Below, piece after piece: positions 1,223 to 26,510 of a stretch of DNA of 64,000 nt. Numbering within the stretch: position 1 is the stretch's first letter; every line of letters starts with the position of its first letter. The notes under the pieces are model-generated. The model was not told where the DNA came from, made no database searches, and was given only the letters and a program-made list of their open reading frames with translations. The stretch is from a virus, in IMG/VR virus record IMGVR_UViG_3300033150_002805, positions 1-64,000 of that record. One strand, 5' to 3'. The position numbers were made by a program, and so were the translations under genes.

Positions 1223-2164
1223 TCAATTATTTAATTTTTCTTCAAGCCAGGGTATTCTCACAAATTTTCTCAAATCAAGTTTGCATAAATAAGAGTATTT
1301 AATAAACTCTTTCAACATTATTTTTCTTGAGTTTAAGACTTTCTCTCTGTGTTTTTCAGTAAATCCTTCATTTTTGATATAACCATCCATAACTTTCATC
1401 AAATCTTTCACATAATCTTCTGACCAAAACTTCCCATGGTTCATTATCATTCCTTCTTCGGTTCCACTCAATATCAAATTTCCCTTCCTCATCATTCCAG
1501 TTTCAATTTTCATGGAAAAATGATGAATATTTGTAAGGCGATAGCTTGGCAATACTATCATTTTCTTATCTTTACCCATTTTTATTCCTAGAATATTCAA
1601 AAGCAAGAAATCATCAAAACTATCAATTCTTCTTGCATTATATAAAGCATCAAACCAATCCAAATCTTGAGGACTTAACCAAATCGGAGCAGTGGTATGA
1701 ATCTTGGGATAGAGGTATTCTTTTGAACCCAGGTTCACTCCATAATGTTTTTGGTATTCTTCATTAAAATTTATAATCATGTTATTTGCAGCAGTCACTA
1801 TAAAACCTTTACTTGCTACTCTAAATAGCAGATTAGCCTCATCTGACATGAAATACATGTCAGCATCAAGAATCAAAATTGCTTCATAATTTTTACCTTC
1901 TGAAACTGCCAATGCAAAACGCTCAATCGCTGTATCTTTTACTTGATCATTTCCTTCACTCTTAACTACTTTTATATTAAAATTGAAAGTTTCTTTAATT
2001 TTCTTCAGATAATCTTCGGGCAAACGGAAAGAAAGTAACAGAACATCAGCATCAATTTTCCAATAATCCATTGAATTTAATATTGCATTAATTCCTGGTA
2101 AATAATTGAGAGAACCAGCTACAACTAATAAATTTTTTGATTTCATGATAATTTTGAAAGCCAA
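1223..2164 (-). CDS. GT-A fold glycosyltransferase, GT8-like
   Basis: ILILDADMY DxD motif and C-terminal NHGKFW; paralog of 2932..3798. Confidence 0.7.
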   Translation of the reverse strand: MAFKIIMKSKNLLVVAGSLNYLPGINAILNSMDYWKIDADVLLLSFRLPEDYLKKIKETFNFNIKVVKSEGNDQVKDTAIERFALAVSEGKNYEAILILDADMYFMSDEANLLFRVASKGFIVTAANNMIINFNEEYQKHYGVNLGSKEYLYPKIHTTAPIWLSPQDLDWFDALYNARRIDSFDDFLLLNILGIKMGKDKKMIVLPSYRLTNIHHFSMKIETGMMRKGNLILSGTEEGMIMNHGKFWSEDYVKDLMKVMDGYIKNEGFTEKHREKVLNSRKIMLKEFIKYSYLCKLDLRKFVRIPWLEEKLNN

Positions 2165-2928
2165 TTTTTTATCATACTATCTTTATATTCCAAAATATTG
2201 ATTCGTTGAATACTATGCTTCTCTACAAAATCTTGTTTTACATAATCAGTTAACTTAAAATCTTTTTCTAAAATAAAAGAATGATTTGGCATAACTGAAA
2301 GAGCAGTCATGGCAGGTCCACTTAATACTCCTACAAATGCAAAAGAATGTTGAACTAAACCAATTAAATTTGCCAAATTAGCTTTACAATCTCTAACATC
2401 TCTATTTATAAAATCATATTTTTTATTAACAGGATTTGCAAAACCATGAAGCCAATGGGTTTCAAAAGGAACTAATCCAAATTCCAGAATTTCATTCCAA
2501 ATTTTTTTAGCTATCTCAGGAGAACAATTAATTTGATTTGGTAAAGCAGTAGCTTGAAAATGAACTAAAACTATCGGACTTTTTCTCTTAGGTAATTCAA
2601 TGACTCCACTAACGGGTGGAATACCAAGTTCATTGATACAACAATTTTCTACTTTGGTGAGTCCACTCCCTTCACTCATAGGAAAATTAGGTGAAAATAC
2701 CAAATCATACTTTTCTTCTTCTATTTTATTCACACTAGGGAATATTTTATCTTGATCATTTTCAAGATATAATGAAAATTCAACTTTTGGATAAAGTCGT
2801 TTTAACTCATTAAAAGCGACCATAAAAGTGAGTAAATCTCCCCATCCACAATGATAAAGAATCAATACCTTTTGTCCTGGTTTGAGATATTCAGCTATTT
2901 TTTTCTTTTCAAAATTATCTATTCTCAT
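2143..2928 (-). CDS. GT-B glycosyltransferase, GT9 (heptosyltransferase)-like
   Basis: GWGDLL N-terminal motif and FVGVLSGPAMTA (cf. GT9 xxGxDSGxxHxA). Confidence 0.65.
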   Translation of the reverse strand: MRIDNFEKKKIAEYLKPGQKVLILYHCGWGDLLTFMVAFNELKRLYPKVEFSLYLENDQDKIFPSVNKIEEEKYDLVFSPNFPMSEGSGLTKVENCCINELGIPPVSGVIELPKRKSPIVLVHFQATALPNQINCSPEIAKKIWNEILEFGLVPFETHWLHGFANPVNKKYDFINRDVRDCKANLANLIGLVQHSFAFVGVLSGPAMTALSVMPNHSFILEKDFKLTDYVKQDFVEKHSIQRINILEYKDSMIKNWLSKLS

Positions 2929-2931
2929 AAT

Positions 2932-3798
2932 CTAAGAAGGAAAATCCAAATTAACTTTCCATTGAGTATTAAATTTTTTATATTGCTCAAAAAATAATCT
3001 TATATTCTTTCTCCCAAAATCTATCAAATTGCTTTCTTTAATTTCTTCGGCTTTTTGATAATTTTTTGAAATCCACCATTTTCCATGAAACATATTCATT
3101 CGTTCATTCGCACAATATAGATAATTTCCTTTTTTCTCAATTAAATCATGATACCACCAAGTTTGAATCCATAAAGCATTCGGTAATCTAAACAAATTTC
3201 CCAAAAGTTTCTCCCAGTATAAGGTTCTAAATAAAGTACTCATGTCTCCCAAATCTCCCGAAATGCCATTTTCCCAAATTTTCTCTAAGAATTTTTGATA
3301 CCTTTTTCCATCGATAAAAATTGGCATACAATGAACAGGTGGAGAAGCAGCTCCACGAACTCCTTCAATTCCGTTTTTTTGGATATGTTCTAAACTGTAT
3401 CCAATTGGATTATTTACAACGATAATATATCCAGTATCCTTAGCTATTTTGAAATATTGCATAATATTATTCATGCAAACCATATCTGCATCTACTATTA
3501 ATAAAACATCATACTTCGATGCAATTTCCGTAGCAAATTTCCATCTAAAAAATCTGGCTTTCCAACCTTTAACATTTTTATTAGAAGGAATATCATAATT
3601 TAGTTGATTAATTCTTACATCAATGACTGGAAAATCAAATGCTCTAACTTTCTCGATATAATCTGGTTCAAAATCATTAATTAAATAGTAATCCAGTTCT
3701 TTATTTCCATAATAATCTAAACTATTAAGAAAAGCATTAGCACCGAATTTAAAATCACCTGTTGCTGTCATTATTACTGCATATTTGTTTTTTACCAT
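2932..3798 (-). CDS. GT-A fold glycosyltransferase, GT8-like
   Basis: LLIVDADMV, GDM, FHGKWW motifs. Confidence 0.7.
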   Translation of the reverse strand: MVKNKYAVIMTATGDFKFGANAFLNSLDYYGNKELDYYLINDFEPDYIEKVRAFDFPVIDVRINQLNYDIPSNKNVKGWKARFFRWKFATEIASKYDVLLIVDADMVCMNNIMQYFKIAKDTGYIIVVNNPIGYSLEHIQKNGIEGVRGAASPPVHCMPIFIDGKRYQKFLEKIWENGISGDLGDMSTLFRTLYWEKLLGNLFRLPNALWIQTWWYHDLIEKKGNYLYCANERMNMFHGKWWISKNYQKAEEIKESNLIDFGRKNIRLFFEQYKKFNTQWKVNLDFPS

Positions 3799-11833: not shown

Positions 11834-12623
11834 AATAATCTTTTATACCAGATTCGACTGTATATTCTGGTTTGAAACCCCAAGAAATATCTGCTTTAGT
11901 AAAAATTTGATATTTTCCTAAATAAGGATTGCTAATGAACTTAGGTTCAATTCTTACCCCCAAAGTTTTAATCACTATTTTCAAAACATCTCTAAAATCG
12001 GTTGCTATTCCTGTTCCGACATCATAAATTCCACTTCTCAGTTTTTTTGCTATTAGTAAGGATTTGATAACATCTTTAACATAGATGAAATCTCGTTTAA
12101 ACTCACCTTTGAAAATAACAGGTCGCTCTCCTCGTTTAATTTGTTCTCGCCATTGGGTAATCATACTTGCCATCTTTCCTTTTTTCTTTTCTCTAGGACC
12201 ATAAACATTCATAAATCTCAATCCAACAATCGGAATCTTATTCCAATATCGTTTAGCCAATTTATCATTCGTTAATTTGGTCTCACCATAGGCATTCAAT
12301 GGAAAATTATTATTGCCATAAACTGAACCAGAGGAAGCATAAACTAATCTTACTCTGTTATCAACGCAATATCTTAAGACATTCAAAAAACTTACGATAT
12401 TATTTCTATACATCTCTATGTCATCAGAAAAAGTGGTATCTGTATTCGCTGCTAAATGAAATATAATATTGGGTTTCTTATTTGGAAAAAATTTAACAGA
12501 AATATCATCATTATATTCTTCAATAAGGTTTTTGCTATCTTCTTGTAATTTTTGAACTAAATTTGAAGCAATAAAACCTTGACTTCCAGTAACACAATTC
12601 TTAATTTTATTTTTCTTGGCCAT
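11817..12623 (-). CDS. hldD: ADP-L-glycero-D-manno-heptose 6-epimerase-like
   Basis: VTGSQGFIASNL, YASSGSVYG, PLNAYGETK, LRFMNVYGPRE.KKGKMASM, RDFIYVKDV, YQIFTKAD. Confidence 0.8.
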   Translation of the reverse strand: MAKKNKIKNCVTGSQGFIASNLVQKLQEDSKNLIEEYNDDISVKFFPNKKPNIIFHLAANTDTTFSDDIEMYRNNIVSFLNVLRYCVDNRVRLVYASSGSVYGNNNFPLNAYGETKLTNDKLAKRYWNKIPIVGLRFMNVYGPREKKKGKMASMITQWREQIKRGERPVIFKGEFKRDFIYVKDVIKSLLIAKKLRSGIYDVGTGIATDFRDVLKIVIKTLGVRIEPKFISNPYLGKYQIFTKADISWGFKPEYTVESGIKDYFENYE

Positions 12624-12647
12624 AAAAAAGAAAAAAAGAGTTCAGAG

Positions 12648-13310
12648 TCATTTTGATTTTTGAACCTTTATTTCACCTACATTAACTATATGGCAATTTG
12701 GACAGAGCTTTTCTAATTTGGTAACTATTCTTGAATCGTTTTCATAAAATTCTTCAATTTTTAGTTTCTTAATCATCTCTGCCTTCCATCTTATTTCTTT
12801 CTCAAGAGTTTTTTCATTAATTGTTATAGCATTAAAATAAACTGGATGTTTCTCTCTTATTTTTCTATTTACCCTTTTTATTTCTTCAAAACTTCTACCC
12901 GTGATTATTGGAGCATCCTTTTCTGGTTTAATACCCGCTGTGATTACTCCATCATAATCATAGGCCCTTCTTAACTGAACTTTTCCCGATTGTTCTTTTC
13001 TATAAGAATCTGAATCTTCATGATGAGAAGAGAACTCTACAATTTGAGCATCTGTTAATCCAGTAAATCTGTGTAATACTCTGGGTTTGATATGAACCGA
13101 ATCTTTTGGTTTCATTATCCATTTTTTTCTTTCTACTTCCATTAGAACTTTACCACGAATAAGATAGAACGTTTCATCTTTTTTCTTATGATAATGAAGA
13201 CTACAACGAAAACCCCTCTTCAATTTTAAGAGCTTTCCACAATAATCTTTCTGATTTTGAATCCAAATTTCTTCTCCCCAAATTTTTGAAACTTTTTTAA
13301 TTTTATTCAT
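12648..13310 (-). CDS. Cupin (sugar isomerase-like) fused to HAD-like domain
   Basis: KIWGEEIW, SLHYHKKKDETF, HRF cupin motifs; AYDYDGVI (DxDG), ITGRS, FYEND HAD motifs. Confidence 0.7.
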   Translation of the reverse strand: MNKIKKVSKIWGEEIWIQNQKDYCGKLLKLKRGFRCSLHYHKKKDETFYLIRGKVLMEVERKKWIMKPKDSVHIKPRVLHRFTGLTDAQIVEFSSHHEDSDSYRKEQSGKVQLRRAYDYDGVITAGIKPEKDAPIITGRSFEEIKRVNRKIREKHPVYFNAITINEKTLEKEIRWKAEMIKKLKIEEFYENDSRIVTKLEKLCPNCHIVNVGEIKVQKSK

Positions 13311-14082
13311 GAATTAATTCTTTTAAAGAAACAACAGAAGTTCCGAATCGAGAAACAACAATTCCAGCAGCCTTATTAGCAAGTTTCATCATACTCTCAG
13401 GATTAGTAATTCCAACAGACAAACAATAAATTAAGACTGCCATTACTGTATCACCAGCACCCGTAACATCAATAACTTCCTTAGATATAACAGGAACATT
13501 CATTCTAAATTTTCCGTTTTCATAGTAATTTATTCCATTCTTACCTTGGGTAATAAAAGCTTGAGGAAAATTCACATTATAAGCTTCCTCGTATTCCTTC
13601 CGATTAATTTTCAAAATCTGTGAACCTTTGAAAACTGATAAATCTTTCTTTTTAGTATCAACTATAGTTGCTTTTCCACCATTAACAATTCCCTTATTAT
13701 AATCAACAAAAGCTATCAAATCAAATTCAGAAGAGGGATATTCCAATCTTTCTAAATCTTGAGTTCGATAAACTTGGGGTTCATCGACTCTTAAAAGTTG
13801 TTGATTCTGAGCAACAAACCTTGTCTTAACCAAGGAAACACAATTCTTAGGAGTTCTAACTTCGAAGGAAAAATTTTTCAAAAAATTTTTATCTACTATT
13901 GTAAATACTACAGGCTGAATGCCCAAAGAGGATAAATTTTTTGCCACGTTCAAAGCACCTCCCAAACGAATTTCTGTCTTTTTGATATCCAGAACTGGAA
14001 CTGGAGCTTCAGGAGAAATTCTATCAACTTCTCCAAAACAATATTTATCCAAAAAACTATCACCAACTATTGCAACTTTCAT
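13303..14082 (-). CDS. hldA: D-glycero-D-manno-heptose-7-phosphate kinase (HldE/RfaE domain I)
   Basis: GDSFLDKY..G.VDRISPEAPVPV, LGGALNVA, QQLLRVD, DYNKG, DVTGAGDT. Confidence 0.85.
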   Translation of the reverse strand: MKVAIVGDSFLDKYCFGEVDRISPEAPVPVLDIKKTEIRLGGALNVAKNLSSLGIQPVVFTIVDKNFLKNFSFEVRTPKNCVSLVKTRFVAQNQQLLRVDEPQVYRTQDLERLEYPSSEFDLIAFVDYNKGIVNGGKATIVDTKKKDLSVFKGSQILKINRKEYEEAYNVNFPQAFITQGKNGINYYENGKFRMNVPVISKEVIDVTGAGDTVMAVLIYCLSVGITNPESMMKLANKAAGIVVSRFGTSVVSLKELIHE

Positions 14083-15071
14083 GACAAATATCCTTTATTT
14101 TTAAACAAATCCTCTTTTTCAAAAGAACGACCCTTTATTTTTTTTAACAACCGAGTTGTTGAATAGTTTGCTAATCTTGGAATAATCACTACCTTTCCAC
14201 CATAATCTCTTACAAAATCATGTCCTATTACTGTTCGTTTAGTGTAATCACCTCCTTTTACTAATACATCGGGTTTGATTCGTTTTATCAGACGTAAAGG
14301 ATTACTTTCATTAAAAATCTCGACTTTATCAACATATTTTAAGGACTCAAGAATTTTCTTTCGTTCTTCTTGATTATTTATCGGTTTTCGTTTTATTCTT
14401 GTTGCTGATGTATCAGAATTAAGACCAACTATCAAAATATCTCCTAATTTTTTTGCTTCTTTCAACAAATAGATATGTCCCAAGGTTAATAAATCATAAA
14501 CTCCATTTGTGAATACCACTAATTCTTTTTTATATACTGCACTATAAATATCTTTTCTTATTCCGCATTCAACTTCTGGATAACCAGATTTAATAAGTTT
14601 GAAACCTCTAGCTTCAAAGAATAAATTCAAACTTTCCTTTGTAAAATAATGAAGATGTTCTCCAGTATCAAACTTAAAATGTTTCCAACCTCTTAATTTT
14701 TTTCCATCTGGAAGGATAGGTAAAGAAATGTAAACATAACGAGTCTTCTTAAATATCTTATCCAAAACTCTAAAATCTGGAATATGTTCCAAAACATCGC
14801 AAAAAAAGATTAGGTCATAAGATGTATGCCTAATCCCAGTATATTTTATTGGAAATTCACCAATATCAAAAGAATCAACTAAAACCCCTTTAGGAGAGAA
14901 TTTAGTCAAAAAGTTGGCTCCTGCTCCATAATCCAAAACGATCTTTGGTTTCAACTCTTTAACAAAATTCCAGCGAACTTTATTTAGTTTTTTCGCTGTT
15001 TTCTCGTAATCTTTTGAAATTGTTTTCCAATATTCTTTATTATATCGAAACAAATTTTTCTCTTTTTCCAT
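14079..15071 (-). CDS. hldC: SAM methyltransferase fused to heptose-1-phosphate nucleotidyltransferase (HldE/RfaE domain II)
   Basis: VLDYGAG, DVLEHI, EHLHYF; VFTNGVYDLLTLGHIYLLKEAKKLGDILIVGLNSD, IKPDVLVKGGDY, YSTTRL; start trimmed to ATG at 15071. Confidence 0.8.
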   Translation of the reverse strand: MEKEKNLFRYNKEYWKTISKDYEKTAKKLNKVRWNFVKELKPKIVLDYGAGANFLTKFSPKGVLVDSFDIGEFPIKYTGIRHTSYDLIFFCDVLEHIPDFRVLDKIFKKTRYVYISLPILPDGKKLRGWKHFKFDTGEHLHYFTKESLNLFFEARGFKLIKSGYPEVECGIRKDIYSAVYKKELVVFTNGVYDLLTLGHIYLLKEAKKLGDILIVGLNSDTSATRIKRKPINNQEERKKILESLKYVDKVEIFNESNPLRLIKRIKPDVLVKGGDYTKRTVIGHDFVRDYGGKVVIIPRLANYSTTRLLKKIKGRSFEKEDLFKNKGYLS

Positions 15072-15246
15072 GGTGGGAATCTCTTTTAAGGTTAGAGAAT
15101 CTCGGAAAGGTCTAATTCTCCAACCCACTTTCTTCTTTTTTTAATTCCTTGAGACCTTTCCATTTCATTGAGTTCAACGAATCTAACAAAGATAGATTCT
15201 CCCCCAATGAAAGACTCAAGGATGCTTAATCTATTGACTTTGAGAA

Positions 15247-16036
15247 TTACCAATCAGAACTTCCAGCGTATGCATACTGCCACATTCCAAAACCAGCATT
15301 TCCTCGCCAACTCACACCGAAATATATTTTCTTTCTCATGAAATCTTCCCAGGTATTTCCAGCATGAGTTTCAAATGTGATATCTTTTCTTAATTGTAGG
15401 ATAATTGGTTTTACTATTCCATTGGTATCCATCACACACCAGAAGTTAGTTGGCACACGAGAAGTAACATATAAATCTAACAATCCTTTCATCACATTCG
15501 TTGCAAGTTTTGTACCTGATACCTCAGTTGGGAAATATTGACTATTCAAGATTTCTCTCGCCAAGAACATGTTATTAGGATGAACTACTAACAAGTTTGG
15601 CCTGATATCCATTTCATTTCCTTTATCATCTACATATTGCATCATTGTCTGAATAGCAGTCTGCAAAGCACTAAAACTGAAAGCTGTACCTGTTGCTATA
15701 TTGGATTGAATTCCTGAACTACCAGATGAATGAGATGCTGAGAAGAAGGGCTGACCATCATAACAAGTGATATCCTTTCCCTCAAATAATCCAGTACCAG
15801 TAGATAAATTACCTTGACCCAAAAGGGTATAAACCAATCTACCCCAGAATCTTTTTGCCTTATCAGCTAAATCTCGAACTCTAATATTAATCTGCCCATA
15901 AAGCTCATCTTCCAATGCATCTTTATCAACTGCTATAGTGCTTTCCCAACTGTAGTTCTTGATGCTGAAATTGTGTTCGAGTAAAGCTTCAGGAACTCGT
16001 TCATCCTTCCATTCTTTTAGTTCAGGGACTCCACCT
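15247..16036 (-). CDS. Major capsid protein, Mu gpT-like, exon 2
   Basis: GGVPELKEWKDER...NYSWESTIAVDKDALEDE.YG, CYDGQPFFSASH, PNLLVV, GFGMWQYAY; spliced gene is 311 aa. Confidence 0.9.
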
Positions 16037-16999
16037 CTATTAACCTTTTATATTTCTATAAAAGCTAGACCATCTCATCCACTAAAAGTGGTCTGACGTA
16101 TGGCCGTTGAGGATCTTCAATCTCTGATAATCTAAGATATCTAAATCAGAATACGGTCTTGAATTTGATAAGGATAAACGCCTTTCACAAAAATCTTTTA
16201 TGATAGCGATTTTCCCATTTAAATCAATAGTTTCAAATCTTTTACAAAATTTAAAACATCTTTTAAGACCTAATATACTTATAACATATTTTGGTTTATT
16301 CCGATTTTTATCAAATCGCTGGATATGATGAGGAATTTTTTTATTTTCAAAGAATCTTTGAATTGAATTTTTCCCAGTTTGAGAAGTAGTAAAGAATCTA
16401 ATTCTAGGAATATACTTTGTTCGTTCACCCTTATAATTTCTTTTGATTATAGTAGCACTACCATCTCCTTCCCAAAATCCCATCAACCAATATTTATCAA
16501 TTTTCATTGTTGAAATCTTCTCTTTTTCTAAACTTGATTGAAAAGATTCTTTATAATTTTGGCGAAGCTTTGGTTCTATTTTGAGACTCTCTTTTATAAT
16601 CTCAGATTGATATTTTTTGATAACTAATTTGGGATTAATCAATTTAAGCCATCTGGAAACCTGTGGATCTCCTTTGATAAAAATAGAAGTTTGAATTCTA
16701 TACCAAGATTTTCGTTTTCTAATCGTAAGATGAAATTTAATCTCATTCAACTTAAGAAAATTGATATAACAATCAATAATCTTGGAATTAGTATTCACAA
16801 ATCCTATTATCGGATTCCAATATTTTCTTTTCTGTTTCTCAAAAGTAAACCAACCTTCGGCATCAAATAATCCAGCGATATAAGATTGAATTTCCTGCTG
16901 ATTGCCCGTTAAAATATCTTTCATATATTACCTAATTAGTTATGAAAGCTTTAGGGTTTTCCAGCATTTAGTCAGATTTTTCATGGTCAGGTGGTTTCT
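16037..16999 (-). mobile_element. Group I intron (963 nt) in the major capsid gene
   Basis: Exon ends in U, intron ends in G; IGS CCACCU-GACCAUG pairs with 5' exon CAUGGUU (U.G at the splice site) and 3' exon AGGUGG (P10); core-like AAUGCUGGAAA, UCAACGGCCAUACG, AUGGUC; splicing restores YAWLGGVPELKEW in frame. Confidence 0.92.
16082..16924 (-). CDS. Intron-encoded double-motif LAGLIDADG homing endonuclease
   Basis: YIAGLFDAEGWF and WLMGFWEGDGSA. Confidence 0.9.
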   Translation of the reverse strand: MKDILTGNQQEIQSYIAGLFDAEGWFTFEKQKRKYWNPIIGFVNTNSKIIDCYINFLKLNEIKFHLTIRKRKSWYRIQTSIFIKGDPQVSRWLKLINPKLVIKKYQSEIIKESLKIEPKLRQNYKESFQSSLEKEKISTMKIDKYWLMGFWEGDGSATIIKRNYKGERTKYIPRIRFFTTSQTGKNSIQRFFENKKIPHHIQRFDKNRNKPKYVISILGLKRCFKFCKRFETIDLNGKIAIIKDFCERRLSLSNSRPYSDLDILDYQRLKILNGHTSDHF

Positions 17000-17145
17000 A
17001 ACCATGCATATGGTTCAACGGATTTCCCTGATCTAATTAAAGTAGCAACTCTTTCCCATTCAGGAACGGTCATTTTCAGTTGTTTCATAAACTCCTTTCT
17101 CATTCCCGCAAGCAATAGATTAGGTATATCTGTTTTTGTTAACAT
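17000..17145 (-). CDS. Major capsid protein exon 1
   Basis: MLTKTDIPNLLLAGMRKEFMKQLKMTVPEWERVATLIRSGKSVEPYAW(L); 146 nt joins exon 2 in frame. Confidence 0.88.
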
Positions 17146-17698: not shown

Positions 17699-20224
17699 TT
17701 AAAATGGAGTTGATTTTTCTTCCCTTTTTCCTTCTTTCTCTTTTTTAAATTCCTTATAAGCTTCTTTTTGAATATCTTCACTCAAACCCATTTTATCCAT
17801 CTCTTCTTTTATTTCATCGGGAATTTTTTCTTCTTTCTTCTTATCTTCTTCTATAGTTCCGAATTCTTCTAAAGAGAAAACGGGACTTCTAGACTTCAAA
17901 TACCTTTTTAAGGCTACATGGAGGTCGACCTTCCTTCCATCAGCTAACTCAATTGGAGTATTTGAAGCTAAAAGAGGAAGTAGAAGTTCTTTTTCAACGG
18001 GAGTTACTTTCCCCTGTCTCAAAAGAGCTTCAAATGTCTTTTCAGCTTCGGCTAACTCAACTCCTTCTTTAGCCTTAGCTTCTTCGGATTCTTCTTCAGT
18101 TTTGGTCTCTTCAGTTTCAGTCTCTTCAGTTTTCACTTCCTCTTCTCCCTCGGTTTCCTCACCGACTTCTGAAGACTCAGTTTCTTCTGAAGTTTCTTCT
18201 GCTGAAGTTTCCTCTACCGAAGTTCTTTCCGAAGTATTTTCATCTTCATTTAATCTTATTTTCTTTTCAATTTTTTCTATTTTTTTTGTAATTTCATCAA
18301 GAGTTAAGGGTGGTTCTGCATTCACTATTGGAATTACCAGACTATCTTCAAATTCTTCTGATAAGGGAACAAAATTTCCTAATCCTTTAATGTAGGGTTC
18401 ATTTACCAAGGCTGCATGAAATAAGGTTGGACCGACTTGTTCACCAGTATCTTTTTTAAGGTAATTTTCTACAAAGCTAGCAGAAATACCTTTAATAAGT
18501 CCTTTCTTGATTTTCTCAGCGATACTATCATCCTTAACATCAACCGTTGCTATCAGTTTATCTCCACCTTTAGATAATTCCAAATCAACTAATTCTCCGA
18601 CATTCTTTGAAGGATCATCACCTGCTGGGTGCCCCAATGGAACAAAGACATTATCAATAACCTTATTTTTAAAATTCTTAAGCAATTTCTTCAATGTTTC
18701 TTTAGTTATTTTTAATATACCATCTCTTCCAGCTCCATGAAACCAAGTTCCTTCTCGTAACAATTCTTTTTTGAATTTGGTTCCTTCGCTTAATCGAATA
18801 TCACCCGAATTGAAAACTTGATAAACTAATTTTTCATTTTCTGATAAGTTCTTCTTCTCTGGATAAGGGTAAGCTAAAGGTTGACCTACTCTTCTTAATT
18901 TATCAATCATAGTTCTGATTTTCTTAAGTTCAGTTAGTATCTTTTTATCAGTTACCTTTTTGATCAATTCATCCAAAGAATCTTTGATTATGTCAATTGC
19001 TCCACCATCCTTCTTGATTCCTTTTGGATAACGATAAGGATAACCATAAGGATAGCCGTAGGGATAACCATAGGGATAACCATAAGGATAGCCATAAGGA
19101 TAGCCGTAGGGATACTTCCTATTTCTTTTTAATTTCTTCTCTACCTCTTTTGATTTCTCTTCTCCTTTCACTTTTCCTTTACAAATTTTCGCAGCCTCTT
19201 TAAAAGGAGTTCCTTTTTTCAACTCTTCTTTCATACAATCAGTATAAGCAGATTTTTCAAACTGCATTATTTTACCAGACTTTTTGACTTTTTTGCTACA
19301 GATTTTTGCTGCTTCCTTAAACGGAGTTCCTTTTTTGAGCTCTTTTTTCATACACTGAGTATAAGCTGATTTCTCAACATAAACTGGTTCAGCTAACTCT
19401 CTTTCTGTTCCTTCCTCCTCTTCATCTTCTTTATCATCATCGACTTCTTTCTCCTTTTCTTCTGGTTCTTCGGTTTCTTCCTCTTTTTCTTCCTCTTCTT
19501 CATCATTAGTTTCTTCCTCTTTCTCGGTTTCCTCTTCATCAGTTTTTTCATCAGTTTCCTCATCTTCTTCAGTTTCTATTTCATCAGTTTCTTCATCTAT
19601 TTCATTTTTTTCTTCTGTTTCTTCCTCTTCCATCTCTTCAGTTTCCTCTTCGACTTCTTCTGGATTTCCTTCTTCAACCTCACTTAACTCTTCAAAATCT
19701 TCTTTTAAATTTTTCTCCATAATTTTTTCAGCCATATCAATGGCCTTTTTAATATACCATCGAATGACTTTAGCTTCTGGATTTGCACCTTGAGGTACCA
19801 ATGAAACTTCCTCAATGCACAAATCCTTAATTAATCTTAACTTCAAATCAGGAAATAGTTCGACCTTTTCACCATAATTCACTTGTCCTTTTACTGACAA
19901 GGAATTGAGTTCTCCTGACTTGACTTTTTCAATTATTGAAGGTTTTGATATTTCAACCTTAATCCAAATTCTACCTTTATCAAAATGACAATCGAGAACT
20001 TTTCCGATTATCTCCTTGGTATGATTCAAACAAAACTTTCCATTTCTTTTAAAATCTTCAACGCATTTTTTCAAAGCAAAATCTGTAATTATATCATTTT
20101 GTAAATCAAAATCATTCGCTGCTGCAAATCCTTCAAGAATAAATTTTCCTCCTTTTTCTTCTCTTTCATTTAGAAAAAGTGGAAAATTAAATTCTATTCT
20201 TGGATAATACAATAATTTATTCAT
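17699..20224 (-). CDS. Prohead protease/scaffold polyprotein (HK97-like protease + acidic linker + Mu gpI-like protease + scaffold)
   Basis: N-term LEGFA..DLQNDII..LNH..IGKV..LSVKG..EVSLVPQGANPEA; second domain VPLGH..IS.SF..TGEQVGPTLFHAALVNEPYIKGL. Confidence 0.8.
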   Translation of the reverse strand: MNKLLYYPRIEFNFPLFLNEREEKGGKFILEGFAAANDFDLQNDIITDFALKKCVEDFKRNGKFCLNHTKEIIGKVLDCHFDKGRIWIKVEISKPSIIEKVKSGELNSLSVKGQVNYGEKVELFPDLKLRLIKDLCIEEVSLVPQGANPEAKVIRWYIKKAIDMAEKIMEKNLKEDFEELSEVEEGNPEEVEEETEEMEEEETEEKNEIDEETDEIETEEDEETDEKTDEEETEKEEETNDEEEEEKEEETEEPEEKEKEVDDDKEDEEEEGTERELAEPVYVEKSAYTQCMKKELKKGTPFKEAAKICSKKVKKSGKIMQFEKSAYTDCMKEELKKGTPFKEAAKICKGKVKGEEKSKEVEKKLKRNRKYPYGYPYGYPYGYPYGYPYGYPYGYPYRYPKGIKKDGGAIDIIKDSLDELIKKVTDKKILTELKKIRTMIDKLRRVGQPLAYPYPEKKNLSENEKLVYQVFNSGDIRLSEGTKFKKELLREGTWFHGAGRDGILKITKETLKKLLKNFKNKVIDNVFVPLGHPAGDDPSKNVGELVDLELSKGGDKLIATVDVKDDSIAEKIKKGLIKGISASFVENYLKKDTGEQVGPTLFHAALVNEPYIKGLGNFVPLSEEFEDSLVIPIVNAEPPLTLDEITKKIEKIEKKIRLNEDENTSERTSVEETSAEETSEETESSEVGEETEGEEEVKTEETETEETKTEEESEEAKAKEGVELAEAEKTFEALLRQGKVTPVEKELLLPLLASNTPIELADGRKVDLHVALKRYLKSRSPVFSLEEFGTIEEDKKKEEKIPDEIKEEMDKMGLSEDIQKEAYKEFKKEKEGKREEKSTPF
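19026..19114 (-). repeat. 12-nt tandem repeat encoding (YPYG)6-YPYRYP
   Basis: Synonymous variants of TAYCCYTAYGGY. Confidence 0.9.
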
Positions 20225-20237
20225 AAGGGTCAAGAGT

Positions 20238-23200
20238 TTATTTTGGTCTAGGCAATTTGGTCTCTTTGAAAACCCAAAAATTGCTTGTGTTTTCTCTTTC
20301 CAAGACCCATAAACCTTTTAATTTTTCGCCTTTAAACTCAAATTTTTTAAAAGAATCAGAGTCTTCATAAACAACTGCCTTTCCTTTGTCTATTATCTTA
20401 ATATATGAACTCGTAGCTTTCGTAGGATTGGCATCCTCTATTCCTGGAGGCAATTTTGCCAATTCTTCCTTTGACATCTTTGCCCTTTCATTCTTTGGTG
20501 GCAAATACTGAGAAACTTCCATCCATTCTTTATATTTACAGGGTTTCCAAAGAGCGGTTACTTCCTTATTCTTCAAGGGATTCTGATTAAGAACAAAATG
20601 CATCAAGCCTGGCTGATCGGGGAAATTAAATCTTAGATCCCAATGTTCTCTAGAGACTCCCGCCCTAATAACCCTTTGCCCCCGCCACCAATGTCGTTGC
20701 AAAACAAAGGGAACTATCCTTATCTTCTTAACCTGTAAAAGTTCAATCATAATCATTTTCATATCATTAGGCCGTTTTTCCAACCAAGTTATGGCATCTT
20801 TCAACCATTCTTTCTTAAATGGATGAAGTTCTTTAAACTCTTGGAGTGCTTTCTCAACCCTTTTGACTTTTTCTGGATAAGGAGTTCGAAGCCAGAAAGT
20901 TAAAATCTGCTGGGACAAAATATAGCGATAAGCAGCTTTTGCCCAATTTGCACCTGGGTTCAATTTTTTCTCAACGAGAACTTTTCCAAGTTTCTCAACC
21001 AATTTATCTCGCACCTCTATTCTTTTTTTCTCATCATCGAATTTCCAATATTGAAATTCTTTAGGAACTTTTTTTCTTATCTTTTCTGGTAAAGCAGAAA
21101 CTTCTTTTGGAGGAATCCATTTCTTATCAACAGCCGCATCTGAGATCACATAAGGAGTTTCATCTAACGGCTTAACGAGGAACCACGGTGCCTCTTCCCT
21201 AAATTTTGTTTCCCTTGCTGGAGGTATGACTTCTTGTTTTTCTATTTTGCCTCGAAATTCAGCAGGTCTTAGTTGTCTGAAAAACCATCTGCCCTTAAGT
21301 TTACCGCCAGAAAAGAAATACTCATGAAAATAAGGTTTTTGAGCACCATATTGGCAATAACCTTTATCAATAATATGGAAAACTCCTGGTGCCGTTTTTG
21401 TTGCCCCTGGTGAACCCACTGGAACTATCCCTTCGACATTCAACCACTCAATAGGCTCAGCACTTTTCCGCATCGCAGCCAATTCAGCATATTTTTTCTT
21501 ATACCCAGGTTTAATCCCAGGTCTTAACTTTGGCACTCCTTTTTTCCAGTCAATTTTCCAAATATCTTTCGAATCTAGTTCTTTTGCTTGTTTCATTGTA
21601 GTCACTGGTTCTTTAATCGCTCCCTTCACCATATCTGCAATAGTCCAACCCAACAAATAATTATTCTGTTTAATTCGAAGATCACTATGACAAGACTTTA
21701 ATCTATAATGATGCTGAATAACATAAGGATATTTCTTTTCCACTTTCGGGTATTCCATATATGGATCGTGTTGTTTCTCAACTAATTCTTTAGACACTTT
21801 CTCATAAAGTTTCTTTGACCATTTTTTCATCTTTTGAGGTTCAAATTCATGTTTCATCCGTTTCTCCTTCACCCTCTTTTTTATTTCGTTATAAATAATC
21901 CTTGCTAAACTAATAACCTGTTTCTCTGTGTATTTGAATTTGTTTCCTTCTTTGATTCTAGAATACCAAGCATTCACTATTCGCCAATCATCGGCTAATT
22001 GCTTATTATTCGGTATCTTGGGATTATATTTGATGTCCTTGATTTTTTCTAACTCAGAAAGATAAATAATCTTTCCTTCTTTCGTAATCTCCTTCTCCTG
22101 TAAACAATAATTCTTCTTTGCTCGCTCAATCGCTTCCTTAACTGTATCGGCTTTCCTATTTACCTTACGCATCACTCTTGGTGCCCAAAGACTTATTCTC
22201 CAAGTATCATCTTTCAAATCATGTTCGACATTCAGAGTTTCACCCTCAATCTCTAGAACATCACCCTTATCAGCTTTTAAGGAAGTAGAGAAAGTTCTAC
22301 CAGAACGATGATAGAAAACATTGCCAAGCTCTTCTGTTTTCATTTTATATTTGCCAGGTTCTAAACCGAAATAATAGTTATATACCCCTTTCACTTTAGT
22401 CTCTTTAATATCAAGAACTTTGCCATAAATTGCTGTTGAATTGTGAAATTTTACCATTCCACTCCGTATACCTTTGAGATTGAATTTGAAGTCTTTTGTC
22501 TTGCAAACATTGCCTTCTGAACCTGGTAGACGCCTTAAAAACTCTGTATGCTTTCTTAATTTCTCTCTGTTCTTCGAAAGAAGATAAGGAGCAAAATTCA
22601 ATTTTATCTTAATATTTGGGATTTTCCAAGTTCTTTGTTTGAAGGGCAAAGATTCAAGTAATTTCAATCTTTTTTCAAAAGGTTCATTATGAATATCAAC
22701 TTTGAAATAGGGCATATCATAAACATTAGCAACGACATGAGAATCATCAGGTATTCCTTTCTGATGAATATAACCAGCAATTACTTCTCTTGGTTTATGG
22801 TCATTATCTTCCCACCATTCCAATTCAGCCATCAATACACAATCTTCTTTAGTTAACTGTTTTACTTCTTTAACCAAAGTTGGTAGCCTATGAGTTATTA
22901 CTTCACCATCTTCTGAAAAGATTTTCACTTCTTCTCCTTTTTTATGAATTTCTGCATTAAACCCATCATACTTCTTGGTCGAATAGAAAGGATATTTCCC
23001 CATATTCTCCATAACTTCTATGAACAAATCAATACTTTGTCGTTTTTCTGGATAATATCCTCTGGTTGGTTTTAGGGGCAAGAAAAATCTGAATAATTTT
23101 ATCTTGTCTTCTCTTGCTGAAACCTCAGCATCCTTGATTGCTGAAGTAACTCGTGGTTTTTCTCTTAATTGTTTTTCGAAATCAGACAACCTAAGCATCC

Positions 23201-24938
23201 TATCCTTACTTCTTAACATCACTAAATTATAAAGTGGAATAGCATTTGTGAAAGGAGTTGAAAACTTATCATAAACAAAATGCAATCTTCTTCTAATCCA
23301 CCAAGGGACGCTTCTAGCGATTCTGAATTCAATAATTCTTCTCATATCAAAACTCAACCACTCTGGTAGCAATATATCCAAATCGCCTCTAGTTGAACCC
23401 TGGTTCACTATTCCTCCTGTTAAATATATCAAAGGTCTTTGAATTATGAAATCTTTAAAATAAGGAAGGATTTCTTCCAAAATCATAAGTTTTCCCATTC
23501 TTTTTCCCGAAGTGTAAATTGGTGCCGAACCTTCACTCAAATTAATGACAATGTTATCAGTAGCTATTATAATTGGAACTTTAGTTAACTCTCGAATTTT
23601 AGTTAACAGAACATCATCTCCATAACTCAATGGTTCTTTGCCTAAATGAGTAACTACTATTCTTTTAACTTTGCCTGGCAAATACCAATTTTTTAATTGA
23701 TTTATCAAACTACTATGCCCGTATGGTTCACCCTTTTTACCTTTCCTTCTTGCCAAGGTCCTGGTAAGAGAGGAGCCATCAATAATTGCCAAATCTAAAT
23801 CTTTGACATACTTCTCTCGATCTCCAGAATGCCAGCCCAAAATATCGGTTGCTTGCAAAACTCTCTTATCTCCCATTTCAATTAGGAAAACATGCATTTT
23901 GGCTCGAATGGAATGTAAGACAGGAATTGGAGTTATCTTAAAAGGGCCAAGGTTAAAAGTCTTATAAGATTCGTATTTTGTCCTCGCATCTATATTGAAA
24001 TCTTTATAAAGATTTGGAACTTCTTTTTCAGTTTCTTTGGAAACTATAATAGCCATATCCTTCAGACCCAAAAGATGATCAGGATGAGAATGACTAACCA
24101 AAATATAATCAGGTTTGATTTTCTCTAAATTTCCTTGATTTATTTTTCCATAATCCACTAGCAGTCTCTTACCCTTATACTCATATAAGATTGAAGTATG
24201 AAATCTGTGTCCAGGACCTTCTTCTTCAATCAAACCTTTGGTTCCATAAAATGTTACTTTATAACCCTCTTTGCTAAACCTCTCCTTGAATTTTTTTGCT
24301 TCCTTATCCAAATCGTCATCAAAAGGTTCATATTCCAATTTTCTCTTTAATATTTCATCTTTAAGAAGGATATGATAGTTAATGCAATCTTCTTTTGAAG
24401 CTGCCGATTGTTGCCAAATCTTATGGATTTCTCTGTGAAGTTTCAAAAGTTCTTCATCACTCAATTTTGCTGGATCACCAAAGTTCATACTCTTAAAAGT
24501 TACATTTTCTAACCAAACCTGAGCTCCTTTAGGTCTTAAAATTTCTTTGGGTGGATCGAATTTTGAAATGAGTTCTATTGGATAATAATATAAGAATTTT
24601 TCTTTTGACCACCATCGTTTTCTTTCATCTTCTGAAATTTGATGAAATTTTCTCAACTCTTTAAACTTTCTTAGATTAATTTTTCTACCTTCCTTTATTT
24701 CAATAATTCCTAAAGCTTTATTATCTTCAATCAAATAAACTGGAATCCCGATGTATTTAGTGAATTTCCTCGAGCTAACAATTGCTTTTTTCTTTCCTTT
24801 CCAAATCAAAGTTCCATGAGGTTTAACCAAGATTTTTCCAGGCAACAAAACAGTTCTCCCAGGTTGCAAAAGCTGAGGAATATCTGACGGAACTAATAAT
24901 TTTTTTAACTTTTTAGTCATCTTTTCTTGTTTTAGCAT
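20238..24938 (-). CDS. Polyprotein: ASCH-like, metallo-beta-lactamase hydrolase, Pol-beta-type nucleotidyltransferase, ATP-dependent DNA ligase + OB fold, two LigD-type 3'-phosphoesterase domains
   Basis: PHGTLIWKGKKKAIV; LLVDYG..SHSHPDHLLG; YLTGGIV..GDLDIL; KKYDG, LMAEL, VYDM, SEGNVCK, MVKF; YVIQHHY..HSDLRI and FVLQRHW..HWDLRF. Confidence 0.8.
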   Translation of the reverse strand: MLKQEKMTKKLKKLLVPSDIPQLLQPGRTVLLPGKILVKPHGTLIWKGKKKAIVSSRKFTKYIGIPVYLIEDNKALGIIEIKEGRKINLRKFKELRKFHQISEDERKRWWSKEKFLYYYPIELISKFDPPKEILRPKGAQVWLENVTFKSMNFGDPAKLSDEELLKLHREIHKIWQQSAASKEDCINYHILLKDEILKRKLEYEPFDDDLDKEAKKFKERFSKEGYKVTFYGTKGLIEEEGPGHRFHTSILYEYKGKRLLVDYGKINQGNLEKIKPDYILVSHSHPDHLLGLKDMAIIVSKETEKEVPNLYKDFNIDARTKYESYKTFNLGPFKITPIPVLHSIRAKMHVFLIEMGDKRVLQATDILGWHSGDREKYVKDLDLAIIDGSSLTRTLARRKGKKGEPYGHSSLINQLKNWYLPGKVKRIVVTHLGKEPLSYGDDVLLTKIRELTKVPIIIATDNIVINLSEGSAPIYTSGKRMGKLMILEEILPYFKDFIIQRPLIYLTGGIVNQGSTRGDLDILLPEWLSFDMRRIIEFRIARSVPWWIRRRLHFVYDKFSTPFTNAIPLYNLVMLRSKDRMLRLSDFEKQLREKPRVTSAIKDAEVSAREDKIKLFRFFLPLKPTRGYYPEKRQSIDLFIEVMENMGKYPFYSTKKYDGFNAEIHKKGEEVKIFSEDGEVITHRLPTLVKEVKQLTKEDCVLMAELEWWEDNDHKPREVIAGYIHQKGIPDDSHVVANVYDMPYFKVDIHNEPFEKRLKLLESLPFKQRTWKIPNIKIKLNFAPYLLSKNREKLRKHTEFLRRLPGSEGNVCKTKDFKFNLKGIRSGMVKFHNSTAIYGKVLDIKETKVKGVYNYYFGLEPGKYKMKTEELGNVFYHRSGRTFSTSLKADKGDVLEIEGETLNVEHDLKDDTWRISLWAPRVMRKVNRKADTVKEAIERAKKNYCLQEKEITKEGKIIYLSELEKIKDIKYNPKIPNNKQLADDWRIVNAWYSRIKEGNKFKYTEKQVISLARIIYNEIKKRVKEKRMKHEFEPQKMKKWSKKLYEKVSKELVEKQHDPYMEYPKVEKKYPYVIQHHYRLKSCHSDLRIKQNNYLLGWTIADMVKGAIKEPVTTMKQAKELDSKDIWKIDWKKGVPKLRPGIKPGYKKKYAELAAMRKSAEPIEWLNVEGIVPVGSPGATKTAPGVFHIIDKGYCQYGAQKPYFHEYFFSGGKLKGRWFFRQLRPAEFRGKIEKQEVIPPARETKFREEAPWFLVKPLDETPYVISDAAVDKKWIPPKEVSALPEKIRKKVPKEFQYWKFDDEKKRIEVRDKLVEKLGKVLVEKKLNPGANWAKAAYRYILSQQILTFWLRTPYPEKVKRVEKALQEFKELHPFKKEWLKDAITWLEKRPNDMKMIMIELLQVKKIRIVPFVLQRHWWRGQRVIRAGVSREHWDLRFNFPDQPGLMHFVLNQNPLKNKEVTALWKPCKYKEWMEVSQYLPPKNERAKMSKEELAKLPPGIEDANPTKATSSYIKIIDKGKAVVYEDSDSFKKFEFKGEKLKGLWVLERENTSNFWVFKETKLPRPK

Positions 24939-24997
24939 CTAAAGGCCAACCGCACTTGCTACAGTGGCTATTTTCAGCTTTATTTTTTGTTCCACAC

Positions 24998-26467
24998 TTA
25001 GGACAAATTTTTTTGCTTTCGGTAGATGCCATTGGTAAATTTTTCACCTAATTTATAACATTTGGCTTCTAAATCAGGCTCATATTTTAAATTCAATAAT
25101 TTTTCTTTTAAGACCTTTGGGGTTCTTGGTGCATTGATATTCAGTTCATCAGCTCTCTTCTTTTTCCCTTTTTCAAAAGCCAAAAGGGGTTTTTTTTCTT
25201 TTTCAACTTTCTCTTTCATCGCCCATTTTAATCTCAATGCTTTTGCTGTTTCTGTAACAACTTCATTAACAAAACCATCTGGTAATTTCTCTCCAGTTCT
25301 CATTATTTGATTGAATACCTCTCTTAAGAATGCTTGAGAAGCATCAGCTAGTTTTTCAAACCGAATTTCTGGATAAGATTGAGTTCCAAAATTCCAATCT
25401 ATCAAAGGAGCTATCGCATAAGTATTCAGAGTGGCTTCCATTTGTTTCATAATTGATTGAATAGCTAAATCAACATATTGAGAGGCAGAAGTGCCTTTTC
25501 CATAAGGATAAGCATACTTGATTTGGTCTAAAATCTGAACCAAGGCTGACTTTGTCATTTCCCTGTTGTGATGATCAATCAATGGTAATGGATCAAAACC
25601 TTTTTCACCACCCCTTTGGATTTCCAATTCAATCCCAGGTGGCAAAGTTATTCTAGAATTTATTCCCAATGTATCCACAACCTCTTCTGCTTTTTTCCTT
25701 TCAGCCGAAGTGAGAGTTTGATTAACTTTTAAAATTTTTAAACCCAAAGTATCTATCTCAGCTTTTTTATGAGAAATATAATAAAGTTTATGTTTTTTGT
25801 CATAATGATAAAATGCAGTTTTCAAAATGGATTCTCCATAAAGCCAATGTTTCTCTTTTTGAAAAGTGAAAAGCATGCACTTTTCTGGAGGAATATTAAC
25901 ATCAACAGAATACGATCCAAAAGTTGCAGTTTGATGAGCACCAGCAAATCCACCATGCCGATCAGCTTTTAATTCTATAGTTTGAGCGTCTCTCGGAGCT
26001 AATTTCTTCCATCCAACTTTGCCTTTATATTTTCCCTCTTCAATAATTCTAGCAACTTTTTCATAGAGCCGAAATCCTTCAAAAATAGCTCTTGTCATAT
26101 CAGAAATGATAAAAGGAAGTGGTGTAGTCATACCACCTAAATGAGGGGGTGATAAAAAGATAGTTTCAATAAAATCTCTTTCTCCTCTATCGTTTTCAGC
26201 GGGAAGAATATGAAAAGGAGTTGAAACTATTGGAAGTGTTAAAAGTCTAACTATTGCTTGAACCTCTCCATCGTTTCTCTGCATTTCAATGTAGGTTTGA
26301 GGTCCAAGATCGTCTGGATTTTCTTCAGTATCATAAGCTCCAATAACTCCTTCACGAGCAATTCCCAACTCTCTAGTGAATTCTTCAAGAGTCAAAACTT
26401 TTCTCTTCTCTTCTTTTTCTACCTTTGATTCCTTTTTAGATTTTAATATAAAATCAAAGAAAGACAC
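24998..26467 (-). CDS. Portal protein (DUF935 / Mu gp29-like)
   Basis: M.RNDGEV, AIFEGFRLYEKV, LAPRD, IPPEKC, LYGESIL, LPPGIELEI, PLIDWNFG; GTG at 26467 preferred over TTG at 26488. Confidence 0.85.
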   Translation of the reverse strand: MSFFDFILKSKKESKVEKEEKRKVLTLEEFTRELGIAREGVIGAYDTEENPDDLGPQTYIEMQRNDGEVQAIVRLLTLPIVSTPFHILPAENDRGERDFIETIFLSPPHLGGMTTPLPFIISDMTRAIFEGFRLYEKVARIIEEGKYKGKVGWKKLAPRDAQTIELKADRHGGFAGAHQTATFGSYSVDVNIPPEKCMLFTFQKEKHWLYGESILKTAFYHYDKKHKLYYISHKKAEIDTLGLKILKVNQTLTSAERKKAEEVVDTLGINSRITLPPGIELEIQRGGEKGFDPLPLIDHHNREMTKSALVQILDQIKYAYPYGKGTSASQYVDLAIQSIMKQMEATLNTYAIAPLIDWNFGTQSYPEIRFEKLADASQAFLREVFNQIMRTGEKLPDGFVNEVVTETAKALRLKWAMKEKVEKEKKPLLAFEKGKKKRADELNINAPRTPKVLKEKLLNLKYEPDLEAKCYKLGEKFTNGIYRKQKNLS

Positions 26468-26510
26468 GGTTATTGAACCTAGGTTCAAAATCCATAGGTG
26501 CTTAGCAAGG

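Follow-up and report, generated by a model that had tools for sequence, protein, structure and literature searches.

Why should a virus carry domains for healing and sealing nucleic acid ends on one long chain among its head genes? The question is raised by a gene at 20238..24938 on the minus strand of a 64,000-nucleotide stretch (the window), positions 1 to 64,000 of IMG/VR virus record IMGVR_UViG_3300033150_002805. The record is a virus contig of 76,846 nt with direct terminal repeats, the G+C content of the stretch in question is about 34%, and the gene encodes a polyprotein of 1,566 amino acids (aa). An earlier note, made from the letters alone, had described a head-module polyprotein bundling a complete end-healing and sealing kit, packaged and co-injected in order to circularise the genome or repair breaks. 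We confirmed that a multi-enzyme end-repair polyprotein is encoded in the head module of this virus. We read it as a "beads-on-a-string" cargo of the head that would perform Ku-independent, LigD-like heal-and-seal on incoming DNA, and in our judgement this reading stands evenly poised between right and wrong. The modules, in order along the chain, are as follows.

20238..24938, minus strand: whole polyprotein open reading frame (ORF; P0001), 1,566 aa, a single uninterrupted frame.
24489..24851, minus strand: ASCH-like (PUA-like barrel) domain, aa ~30-150, from a Pfam ASCH match (E 1.3e-3) and a model match.
24264..24488, minus strand: helical module, aa 151-225, from predicted helices.
23529..24263, minus strand: metallo-beta-lactamase (MBL)-fold phosphodiesterase of the RNase Z / ElaC / PhnP type, aa 226-470, from Pfam, motif and model.
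23130..23528, minus strand: small Pol-beta-type nucleotidyltransferase (NTase)-like module (NT), aa 471-603, from signature and predicted topology.
22059..23129, minus strand: ATP-dependent DNA ligase (LIG), aa 604-960, adenylation domain and C-terminal part, from Pfam PF01068.
21783..22058, minus strand: helical module E, aa 961-1052; Dam methylases occupy the same position in relatives.
20979..21782, minus strand: LigD-type phosphoesterase (PE) barrel PE1, aa 1053-1320, from profile, hhalign and conservation.
20754..20978, minus strand: helical linker, aa 1321-1395, from the C-terminal model.
20241..20753, minus strand: compact LigD-type PE barrel PE2, aa 1396-1566, from structure and profile match.

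The adenylation domain of the ligase was recognized by Pfam DNA_ligase_A_M (PF01068) at aa 639-831 (E 3e-16, 60 bits against a cut-off of 26.2). Its motif I reads K-Y-D-G, in agreement with the intact KxDG reported in the earlier note, while the Arg of KxDGxR is replaced by Asn here. Across the family the motif I Lys is kept in 97/100 members, the E-G of motif IV in 99-100/100 and the motif V Lys in 100/100, and motif III is also conserved. The ligase profile matched human Lig1 and archaeal ligases at E ~1e-12 and the LigD ligase domain 1vs0 at E 5e-3, which places it nearer, as judged by profile, to the Lig1/archaeal replicative ligases than to the ligase domain of LigD. A stretch of about 130 conserved residues lies C-terminal to the adenylation domain; it presumably forms an OB fold and gave no match in Pfam or in the PDB profile search.

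The C-terminal part resembles the PE domain of LigD. In the AlphaFold2 model of aa 961-1566 (mean predicted local distance difference test, pLDDT, of 78 and about 90 in both barrels), PE2 (aa ~1408-1562) was superimposed by VIA-align on 3p43 with Z 15.6 and a root-mean-square deviation (rmsd) of 1.9 Å over 119 of 124 aa, and further scores were obtained with 3p4h (14.9), 3n9d (13.1) and 5dmp (12.1). All seven PDB matches returned by Foldseek for this model at E<=1e-3 were LigD PE entries, and none was of another kind. At the profile level, PE2 matched 3p4h at E 2.8e-5 and PE1 matched it at E 1.3e-3 in two collinear stretches, while Pfam LigD_N (PF13298) gave 18.6 bits (E 2e-3) for PE1 and 12.2 bits for PE2, both below the cut-off of 31.1. 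PE1, which carries an insertion of about 50 aa after its third strand, was linked to PE2 as a paralogue by hhalign (probability 97.7%, E 1.7e-12). PE2 is thereby modelled as an eight-stranded LigD PE beta-barrel to which PE1 is tied through hhalign, and the two LigD-type domains proposed earlier are retained.

In PaeLigD numbering, His42, His48, Asp50, Arg52, His84 and Tyr88 are essential for both activities of the LigD PE, which acts on 3'-ribonucleotide ends, and His42, His48 and Asp50 bind Mn (PMC3300020). The His-His-Asp-Arg set is present in both barrels of the polyprotein, as Q-H-H...H-S-D-L-R in PE1 and Q-R-H...H-W-D-L-R in PE2. At the positions of His84 and Tyr88, as placed by low-identity HMMER alignments to 3p4h and 3p43, PE1 has Glu and Trp, and PE2 has Lys and Trp. 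Among family members the His/His/Asp/Arg of PE1 is kept in 85-87/88; PE1 further has a Lys and a Trp that do not vary, and a position taken by either Glu or Gln. The catalytic residues of PE2 are kept in only ~28-38 of 79 relatives. Since PE1 keeps its set almost everywhere and PE2 in about one third, PE1 is taken as the conserved catalyst, and PE2 is read from this pattern as a duplicate that is degenerate in most relatives and intact in this clade.

The NT module carries the signature G-G-x9-D-x-D, in line with the pattern hG[GS]-x9-13-Dh[DE]h of the Pol-beta-type superfamily, and beyond one more strand it has a third acidic residue. The G/D/D set is kept in at least 155 of 162 family members. 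Its predicted topology in the AlphaFold2 model, alpha-beta-alpha-beta-alpha-beta, agrees with a Pol-beta-type core. A search of the ESM Atlas gave a weak lead, and a lead only, to "nucleotidyltransferase" clusters (score 0.85). The structure search list of the N-terminal model was occupied by MBL matches, leaving the NT fold unplaced there. From signature and predicted topology aa 471-603 is probably an NTase, the weakest of the domain calls.

The N-terminal half adds two further domains, both examined in an AlphaFold2 model of aa 1-620 (mean pLDDT 70). The ASCH-like domain scored under the Pfam cut-off (PF04266, 19.8 bits against 21.2), though residues 32-150 of the model matched the Zymomonas ASCH protein 5guq with Z 10.2 and rmsd 3.1 Å over 118 of 143 aa, so that aa ~30-150 is modelled as an ASCH/PUA-like barrel, as the earlier note had proposed. 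The helical module that follows (aa 151-225) accompanies ASCH in relatives and is weakly similar to module E (pairwise BLAST E 0.013). The MBL hydrolase was likewise borne out: Pfam Lactamase_B_2 matched aa 246-431 (E 1.5e-9, 38 bits against a cut-off of 27), the H-x-H-x-D-H motif is present as H-S-H-P-D-H, and model residues 224-467 matched the ElaC homologue 1zkp (Z 22.7), PhnP (Z 22.2), Apyc1 7u2r (Z 18.5) and also RNase Z/J enzymes. An assignment of the MBL domain as the anti-Pycsar protein Apyc1 was considered and rejected, as PF23023 had no match in the record at E<=10 and the Z score of 7u2r was below those of ElaC and PhnP.

How general this arrangement is was seen from relatives. Searched against 1.84 billion representatives, the NT-module profile recovered 558 representative clusters at E<=1e-3, of which 390 remained at E<=1e-10, and 29 homologues of similar length were found; by homology, the polyprotein falls in a large uncharacterised viral family. 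The architectures of 173 sampled members were annotated with local hidden Markov models (HMMs). The core order is NT-LIG-PE1-PE2 or NT-PE1-PE2-LIG, with modules shuffled, and methylases are often inserted (Dam in 34, C5 in 3). MBL was found in 14 of the sampled members; ASCH and MBL are occasional and absent from most. Peptidase_S78_2, the XkdF-type prohead protease, stands at the extreme C-terminus in 35 of the 173, five of which (P0016, P0017, P0019, P0020 and P0027) were confirmed by Pfam, and in relative P0013 the ASCH-MBL part is joined to the same protease type as in this record. Separately, relative P0016 carries at aa 756-844 an S-adenosylmethionine decarboxylase-like domain (AdoMet_dc, PF02675, E 1e-19) beside its Dam methylase. 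Inteins lie inside the polyproteins of some relatives, for example P0003/L004, P0020 and P0013; P0003/L004 has an insertion of ~330 aa within PE1 (12190-13169), and P0020 has an Intein_splicing and LAGLIDADG_2 element inside its ligase (aa 357-694).

The position of the gene bears on where its product acts. The location between portal and protease given in the earlier note was correct, with these two neighbours.

24998..26488, minus strand: portal, Mu type, directly upstream of the polyprotein (Pfam Portal_Mu E 8e-32; phrog_113).
17699..20233, minus strand: prohead protease/scaffold, 844 aa, downstream of the polyprotein (PHROG head-maturation-protease families).

At the junction the protease/scaffold begins ~5-14 nt past the stop of the polyprotein, as read from the sequence there. 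The synteny survey suggested in the earlier note gave a consistent picture: a prohead protease is the next gene in 17/17 related IMG/VR loci that extend far enough, and the N-terminal part of the protease/scaffold comes after the polyprotein in most related loci. In every locus checked the polyprotein lies immediately after the portal or immediately before the prohead protease, with portals of three families. The order terminase-portal-polyprotein-protease-capsid is built from Mu-type modules in this record and in L012 (Portal_Mu and Mu-like_Pro), and from HK97-type modules in L014 and L016 (Phage_portal, Peptidase_S78 and Phage_capsid). In ANMV-1 (KP703175, L001) the gene at 1913-3193 is annotated as a "MutT-like phage hydrolase"; it matches Phage_portal_3 (E 3e-22) and lies directly upstream of the ligase-PE polyprotein, so that the head-module context is hidden in that record by the annotation of its portal.

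The prohead protease is the sole enzyme whose place is necessarily inside the procapsid. Because three portal lineages share the slot and the polyprotein has repeatedly become fused to this protease, it is very likely a head-internal protein, and this comparison of sequences and gene order indicates that the head probably takes it up and that it probably reaches the cell along with the DNA. Both the slot and the 35/173 protease fusions speak strongly for the cargo role proposed in the earlier note; packaging and co-injection are what we infer from them.

A further pattern concerns the linkers. The word hEK (hydrophobic-Glu-Lys) was found within 15 residues before the module start for 26% of PE1, 34% of S78_2 and 51% of Dam modules, against ~6% expected from its overall density, while the control word K-E had no such enrichment. 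In P0001, 5-6 of 13 hEK sites are at module borders, and hEK or L-S-E/D words occur at the borders MBL/NT, NT/LIG, LIG/E, E/PE1, PE1/linker and linker/PE2. Such boundary words at linkers would fit cleavage by the prohead protease.

Taken together, a possible course of events can be outlined. By virtue of its link to the protease/scaffold, the chain would be taken into the procapsid during assembly, and the prohead protease would then cut it at the inter-module linkers into single enzymes, which after folding would be kept in the head as they would be too large to exit the shell. They would enter the cell together with the genome. There PE1, and here also PE2, would clear blocked 3' ends (3'-phosphate or 3'-ribonucleotide), the NTase would supply or adjust a 3' nucleotide, and sealing would fall to the ligase, with MBL and ASCH as accessory nucleic-acid or nucleotide phosphodiesterases. 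The breaks might come from host nucleases or from damage building up in the virion; a role against host nucleases is plausible on the present comparisons, and the insertion of methylases in relatives points in the same direction, that of pre-emptive protection of the genome. Circularisation of the genome by ligation, the other purpose named in the earlier note, is not clearly needed because the record has direct terminal repeats. In its general form, the proposal is that uncultured tailed viruses of a widespread group, with hosts among bacteria and archaea, tether a Ku-independent, LigD-like kit of NTase, remodelled PE and ligase, often with methylases, to the prohead protease, so that the kit is built into the capsid, cut free, injected and set to repair breaks before viral gene expression; we put this forward tentatively, as having somewhat under an even chance.

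Several observations weigh against a packaged heal-and-seal cargo. The NT module, whose Pol-beta assignment in the earlier note is supported by motif and predicted topology, had no Pfam match and no PDB sequence match, and a PDB search with its profile came back empty at E<=10. The earlier note cited the 3'-end conversion performed by the LigD PE domain; both barrels here retain His-His-Asp-Arg, whereas at the His84/Tyr88 positions PE1 has Glu/Gln and Trp family-wide, and PE2 has Lys followed by a variable residue. With these residues replaced and PE2 degenerate in most relatives, the PE chemistry may differ from that of LigD. Comparison of the PE region with the BFVD viral structure library brought up no convincing match. 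No domain of a polynucleotide 5'-kinase was detected, so the word "complete" in the earlier note overstated the kit, and Ku had no match anywhere in the 76.8-kb record, which extends to the whole record what had been said of the window. The slot was described as that of MuF-type minor head genes; the polyprotein does lie beside the portal, but no Pfam match to the MuF domain (PF04233) was found in P0001 at E<=1, nor did Pfam reveal another known capsid-targeting domain in it, and in L014 a weak MuF match falls on the portal protein and not on the polyprotein. The polyprotein and the protease are here separate, unfused ORFs. The counts of hEK boundary words are inflated and non-independent because the sequences share ancestry. 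Finally, ANMV-1 was the sole homologue-bearing record among 50,697 phage records, and the family has no cultured relative.

The separate ORF and the lack of a known capsid-targeting domain would suit an unpackaged polyprotein, that is, a late cytoplasmic DNA-maturation set that seals nicked concatemers for packaging and is encoded in the head operon for co-expression only. Phage ligases such as T4 gp30 are required since nicked DNA packages poorly, which also counts for this explanation. The 35 C-terminal protease fusions among 173 members, on the other hand, place the enzymes inside the procapsid in those viruses, and a portal/protease slot held across three unrelated portal lineages exceeds what co-expression would need. 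We consider an unpackaged set unlikely, while leaving it appreciable weight.

A kit for RNA, for example for tRNAs cut by host anticodon nucleases, is another explanation, in which ASCH and MBL would handle RNA ends and the PE would remove 2',3'-cyclic or 3' phosphates. Phosphodiesterases (ElaC, RNase Z and PhnP) are indeed the best matches of the MBL domain, the PDB entry matched by the ASCH-like domain bears the title ASCH, and the LigD PE does act on 3'-ribonucleotide ends (PMC3300020). RNA repair becomes improbable when set against the failure to detect a 5'-kinase domain, a ligase of the DNA-ligase family closest to Lig1 and archaeal DNA ligases, the frequent DNA methylases among the co-cargo, and the absence of ASCH and MBL from most members. 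That the modules serve mainly as structure, former enzymes turned into scaffold or internal-core filler and scarcely catalytic if at all, would account for the loss of the PE2 His-His-Asp-Arg in most relatives and for the unassigned helical modules between the enzymes, but is very improbable given that the catalytic residues of NT, ligase and PE1 are nearly invariant over >85 divergent representatives each and that the MBL motif is intact.

The surroundings of the polyprotein gene were also inspected. A 44-codon open frame at 24913-25047 on the minus strand (39 aa from its Met) has the zinc-ribbon pattern C-P-K-C...C-S-K-C; read in the +1 frame with respect to the portal, it overlaps both the last part of the portal gene and the first part of the polyprotein gene, and a run of seven A bases stands in the portal frame just upstream of it. 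The frame may be a small gene in its own right, or it may extend the portal by way of a frameshift. The 844-aa protease protein has two separate weak matches to the S78_2 model, at aa 77-118 and aa 560-585, and the PHROG protease families match both of its halves. On its 3' side follow a decoration protein and then a Mu gpT-type major capsid gene (15247-17100, minus strand), which is interrupted by a 280-aa LAGLIDADG endonuclease ORF (16082-16924); the separate capsid ORF (15247-15915) holds the C-terminal capsid part only. Directly downstream of the capsid gene, 13303-15128 on the minus strand encodes a methyltransferase-cytidylyltransferase fusion (HldC-like) and a PfkB-type kinase, which are part of a sugar-nucleotide gene block. 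Elsewhere in the phage genome, at 44668-45780 on the plus strand, lies a TnpB/IS605 OrfB-type protein with OrfB_IS605 and a Cas12f-like TNB domain.

As to the host, a relative with 71% identity is on a contig binned as Hodarchaeales, other relatives occur in Planctomycetia and Elusimicrobia metagenome-assembled genomes, and ANMV-1 is archaeal. The window also encodes at 55048-57192 on the plus strand a 714-aa protein with an internal LAGLIDADG_3 (a possible intein) and a C-terminal PG_binding_1 domain, which may be an endolysin. A bacterial host is favoured because this peptidoglycan-binding protein is encoded. A specifically Asgard virus was rejected in view of the Planctomycetia, Elusimicrobia and ANMV-1 relatives and the same domain.

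Our literature search, whose coverage was incomplete, found no capsid-packaged DNA ligase or LigD PE in prokaryotic viruses. If the proposal is true, it would describe the first DNA ligase/repair system that prokaryotic viruses package in their capsids. If carried in the head, the kit would add DNA break repair to the pre-packaged counter-defence of phages (methylation, nuclease inhibitors and RNA polymerases), and it would bear on how viruses survive restriction/CRISPR cleavage and long extracellular dormancy. Attachment to the prohead protease would likewise offer a natural route for loading foreign enzymes into capsids.

Among known enzyme systems, the closest are LigD (POL-PE-LIG, with Ku) and the split archaeal non-homologous end joining (NHEJ) set (3n9b, 3p43, 3p4h and 5dmp). 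Like LigD, the polyprotein combines in one polypeptide an ATP-dependent ligase, a PE fold with a His-His-Asp triad and Arg, and a nucleotide-adding module, here NTase-like. Unlike LigD, it has no polymerase of the archaeo-eukaryotic primase type (AEP-type POL) and carries in its place a Pol-beta-type NTase-like module of ~130 aa; it has two PE copies, both with His84/Tyr88 replaced and PE1 with its ~50-aa insertion; its ligase is of a Lig1/archaeal-like subtype; there is no Ku; and the gene is viral and lies in a head module. For biochemistry it offers a compact ligase-PE-NTase combination that is seemingly Ku-free, and a PE active site whose second shell differs, having Lys, Glu/Gln and Trp where LigD has His84/Tyr88. 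From the GenBank phage records, the homologue for comparison is AJP62006 of ANMV-1, annotated as an "ATP-dependent DNA ligase", which shares the NT-LIG-PE1-PE2 order with 31% identity over aa 469-1311 and also lies directly downstream of a portal; it differs in being 866 aa long, in having neither ASCH nor MBL, and in its host, an ANME-1 archaeon.

Head-internal anti-restriction proteins are known from P1 (DarB) and T4 (IPI*/Alt); they are taken up by the prohead and leave it together with the DNA on ejection, the T4 cargo is trimmed by the prohead protease, and DarB is a methyltransferase-helicase that protects incoming DNA. To our knowledge these have no sequence relation to the polyprotein and carry a different enzymatic cargo, and we know of no ligase or end-healing enzyme among such proteins. 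A closer parallel in organization is given by the polyvalent proteins (Iyer et al. 2017, PMC5512222). These are extended chains of enzyme domains, DNA methylases among them, whose genes adjoin those for portal or MuF proteins; they are predicted to enter the virion, to undergo processing by peptidases and to reach the host with the DNA as a means against its defences. That paper mentions neither LigD nor ASCH, names only RNA ligases, which do not associate with polyvalent proteins, and reports few polyvalent proteins in archaeal elements and few large ones beyond bacteria; the anchors it describes are MuF or portal and not the prohead protease (PMC5512222). The polyprotein resembles them in having six enzyme-like domains in one chain adjoining the portal and in its methylase-bearing relatives, and departs from them in its anchor, which is the prohead protease (S78_2/S78) or adjacency and not MuF, and in its cargo, a DNA heal-and-seal set. 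The polyprotein would thus be a new form, in both cargo and anchor, of a known theme, that of head-packaged multi-enzyme proteins.

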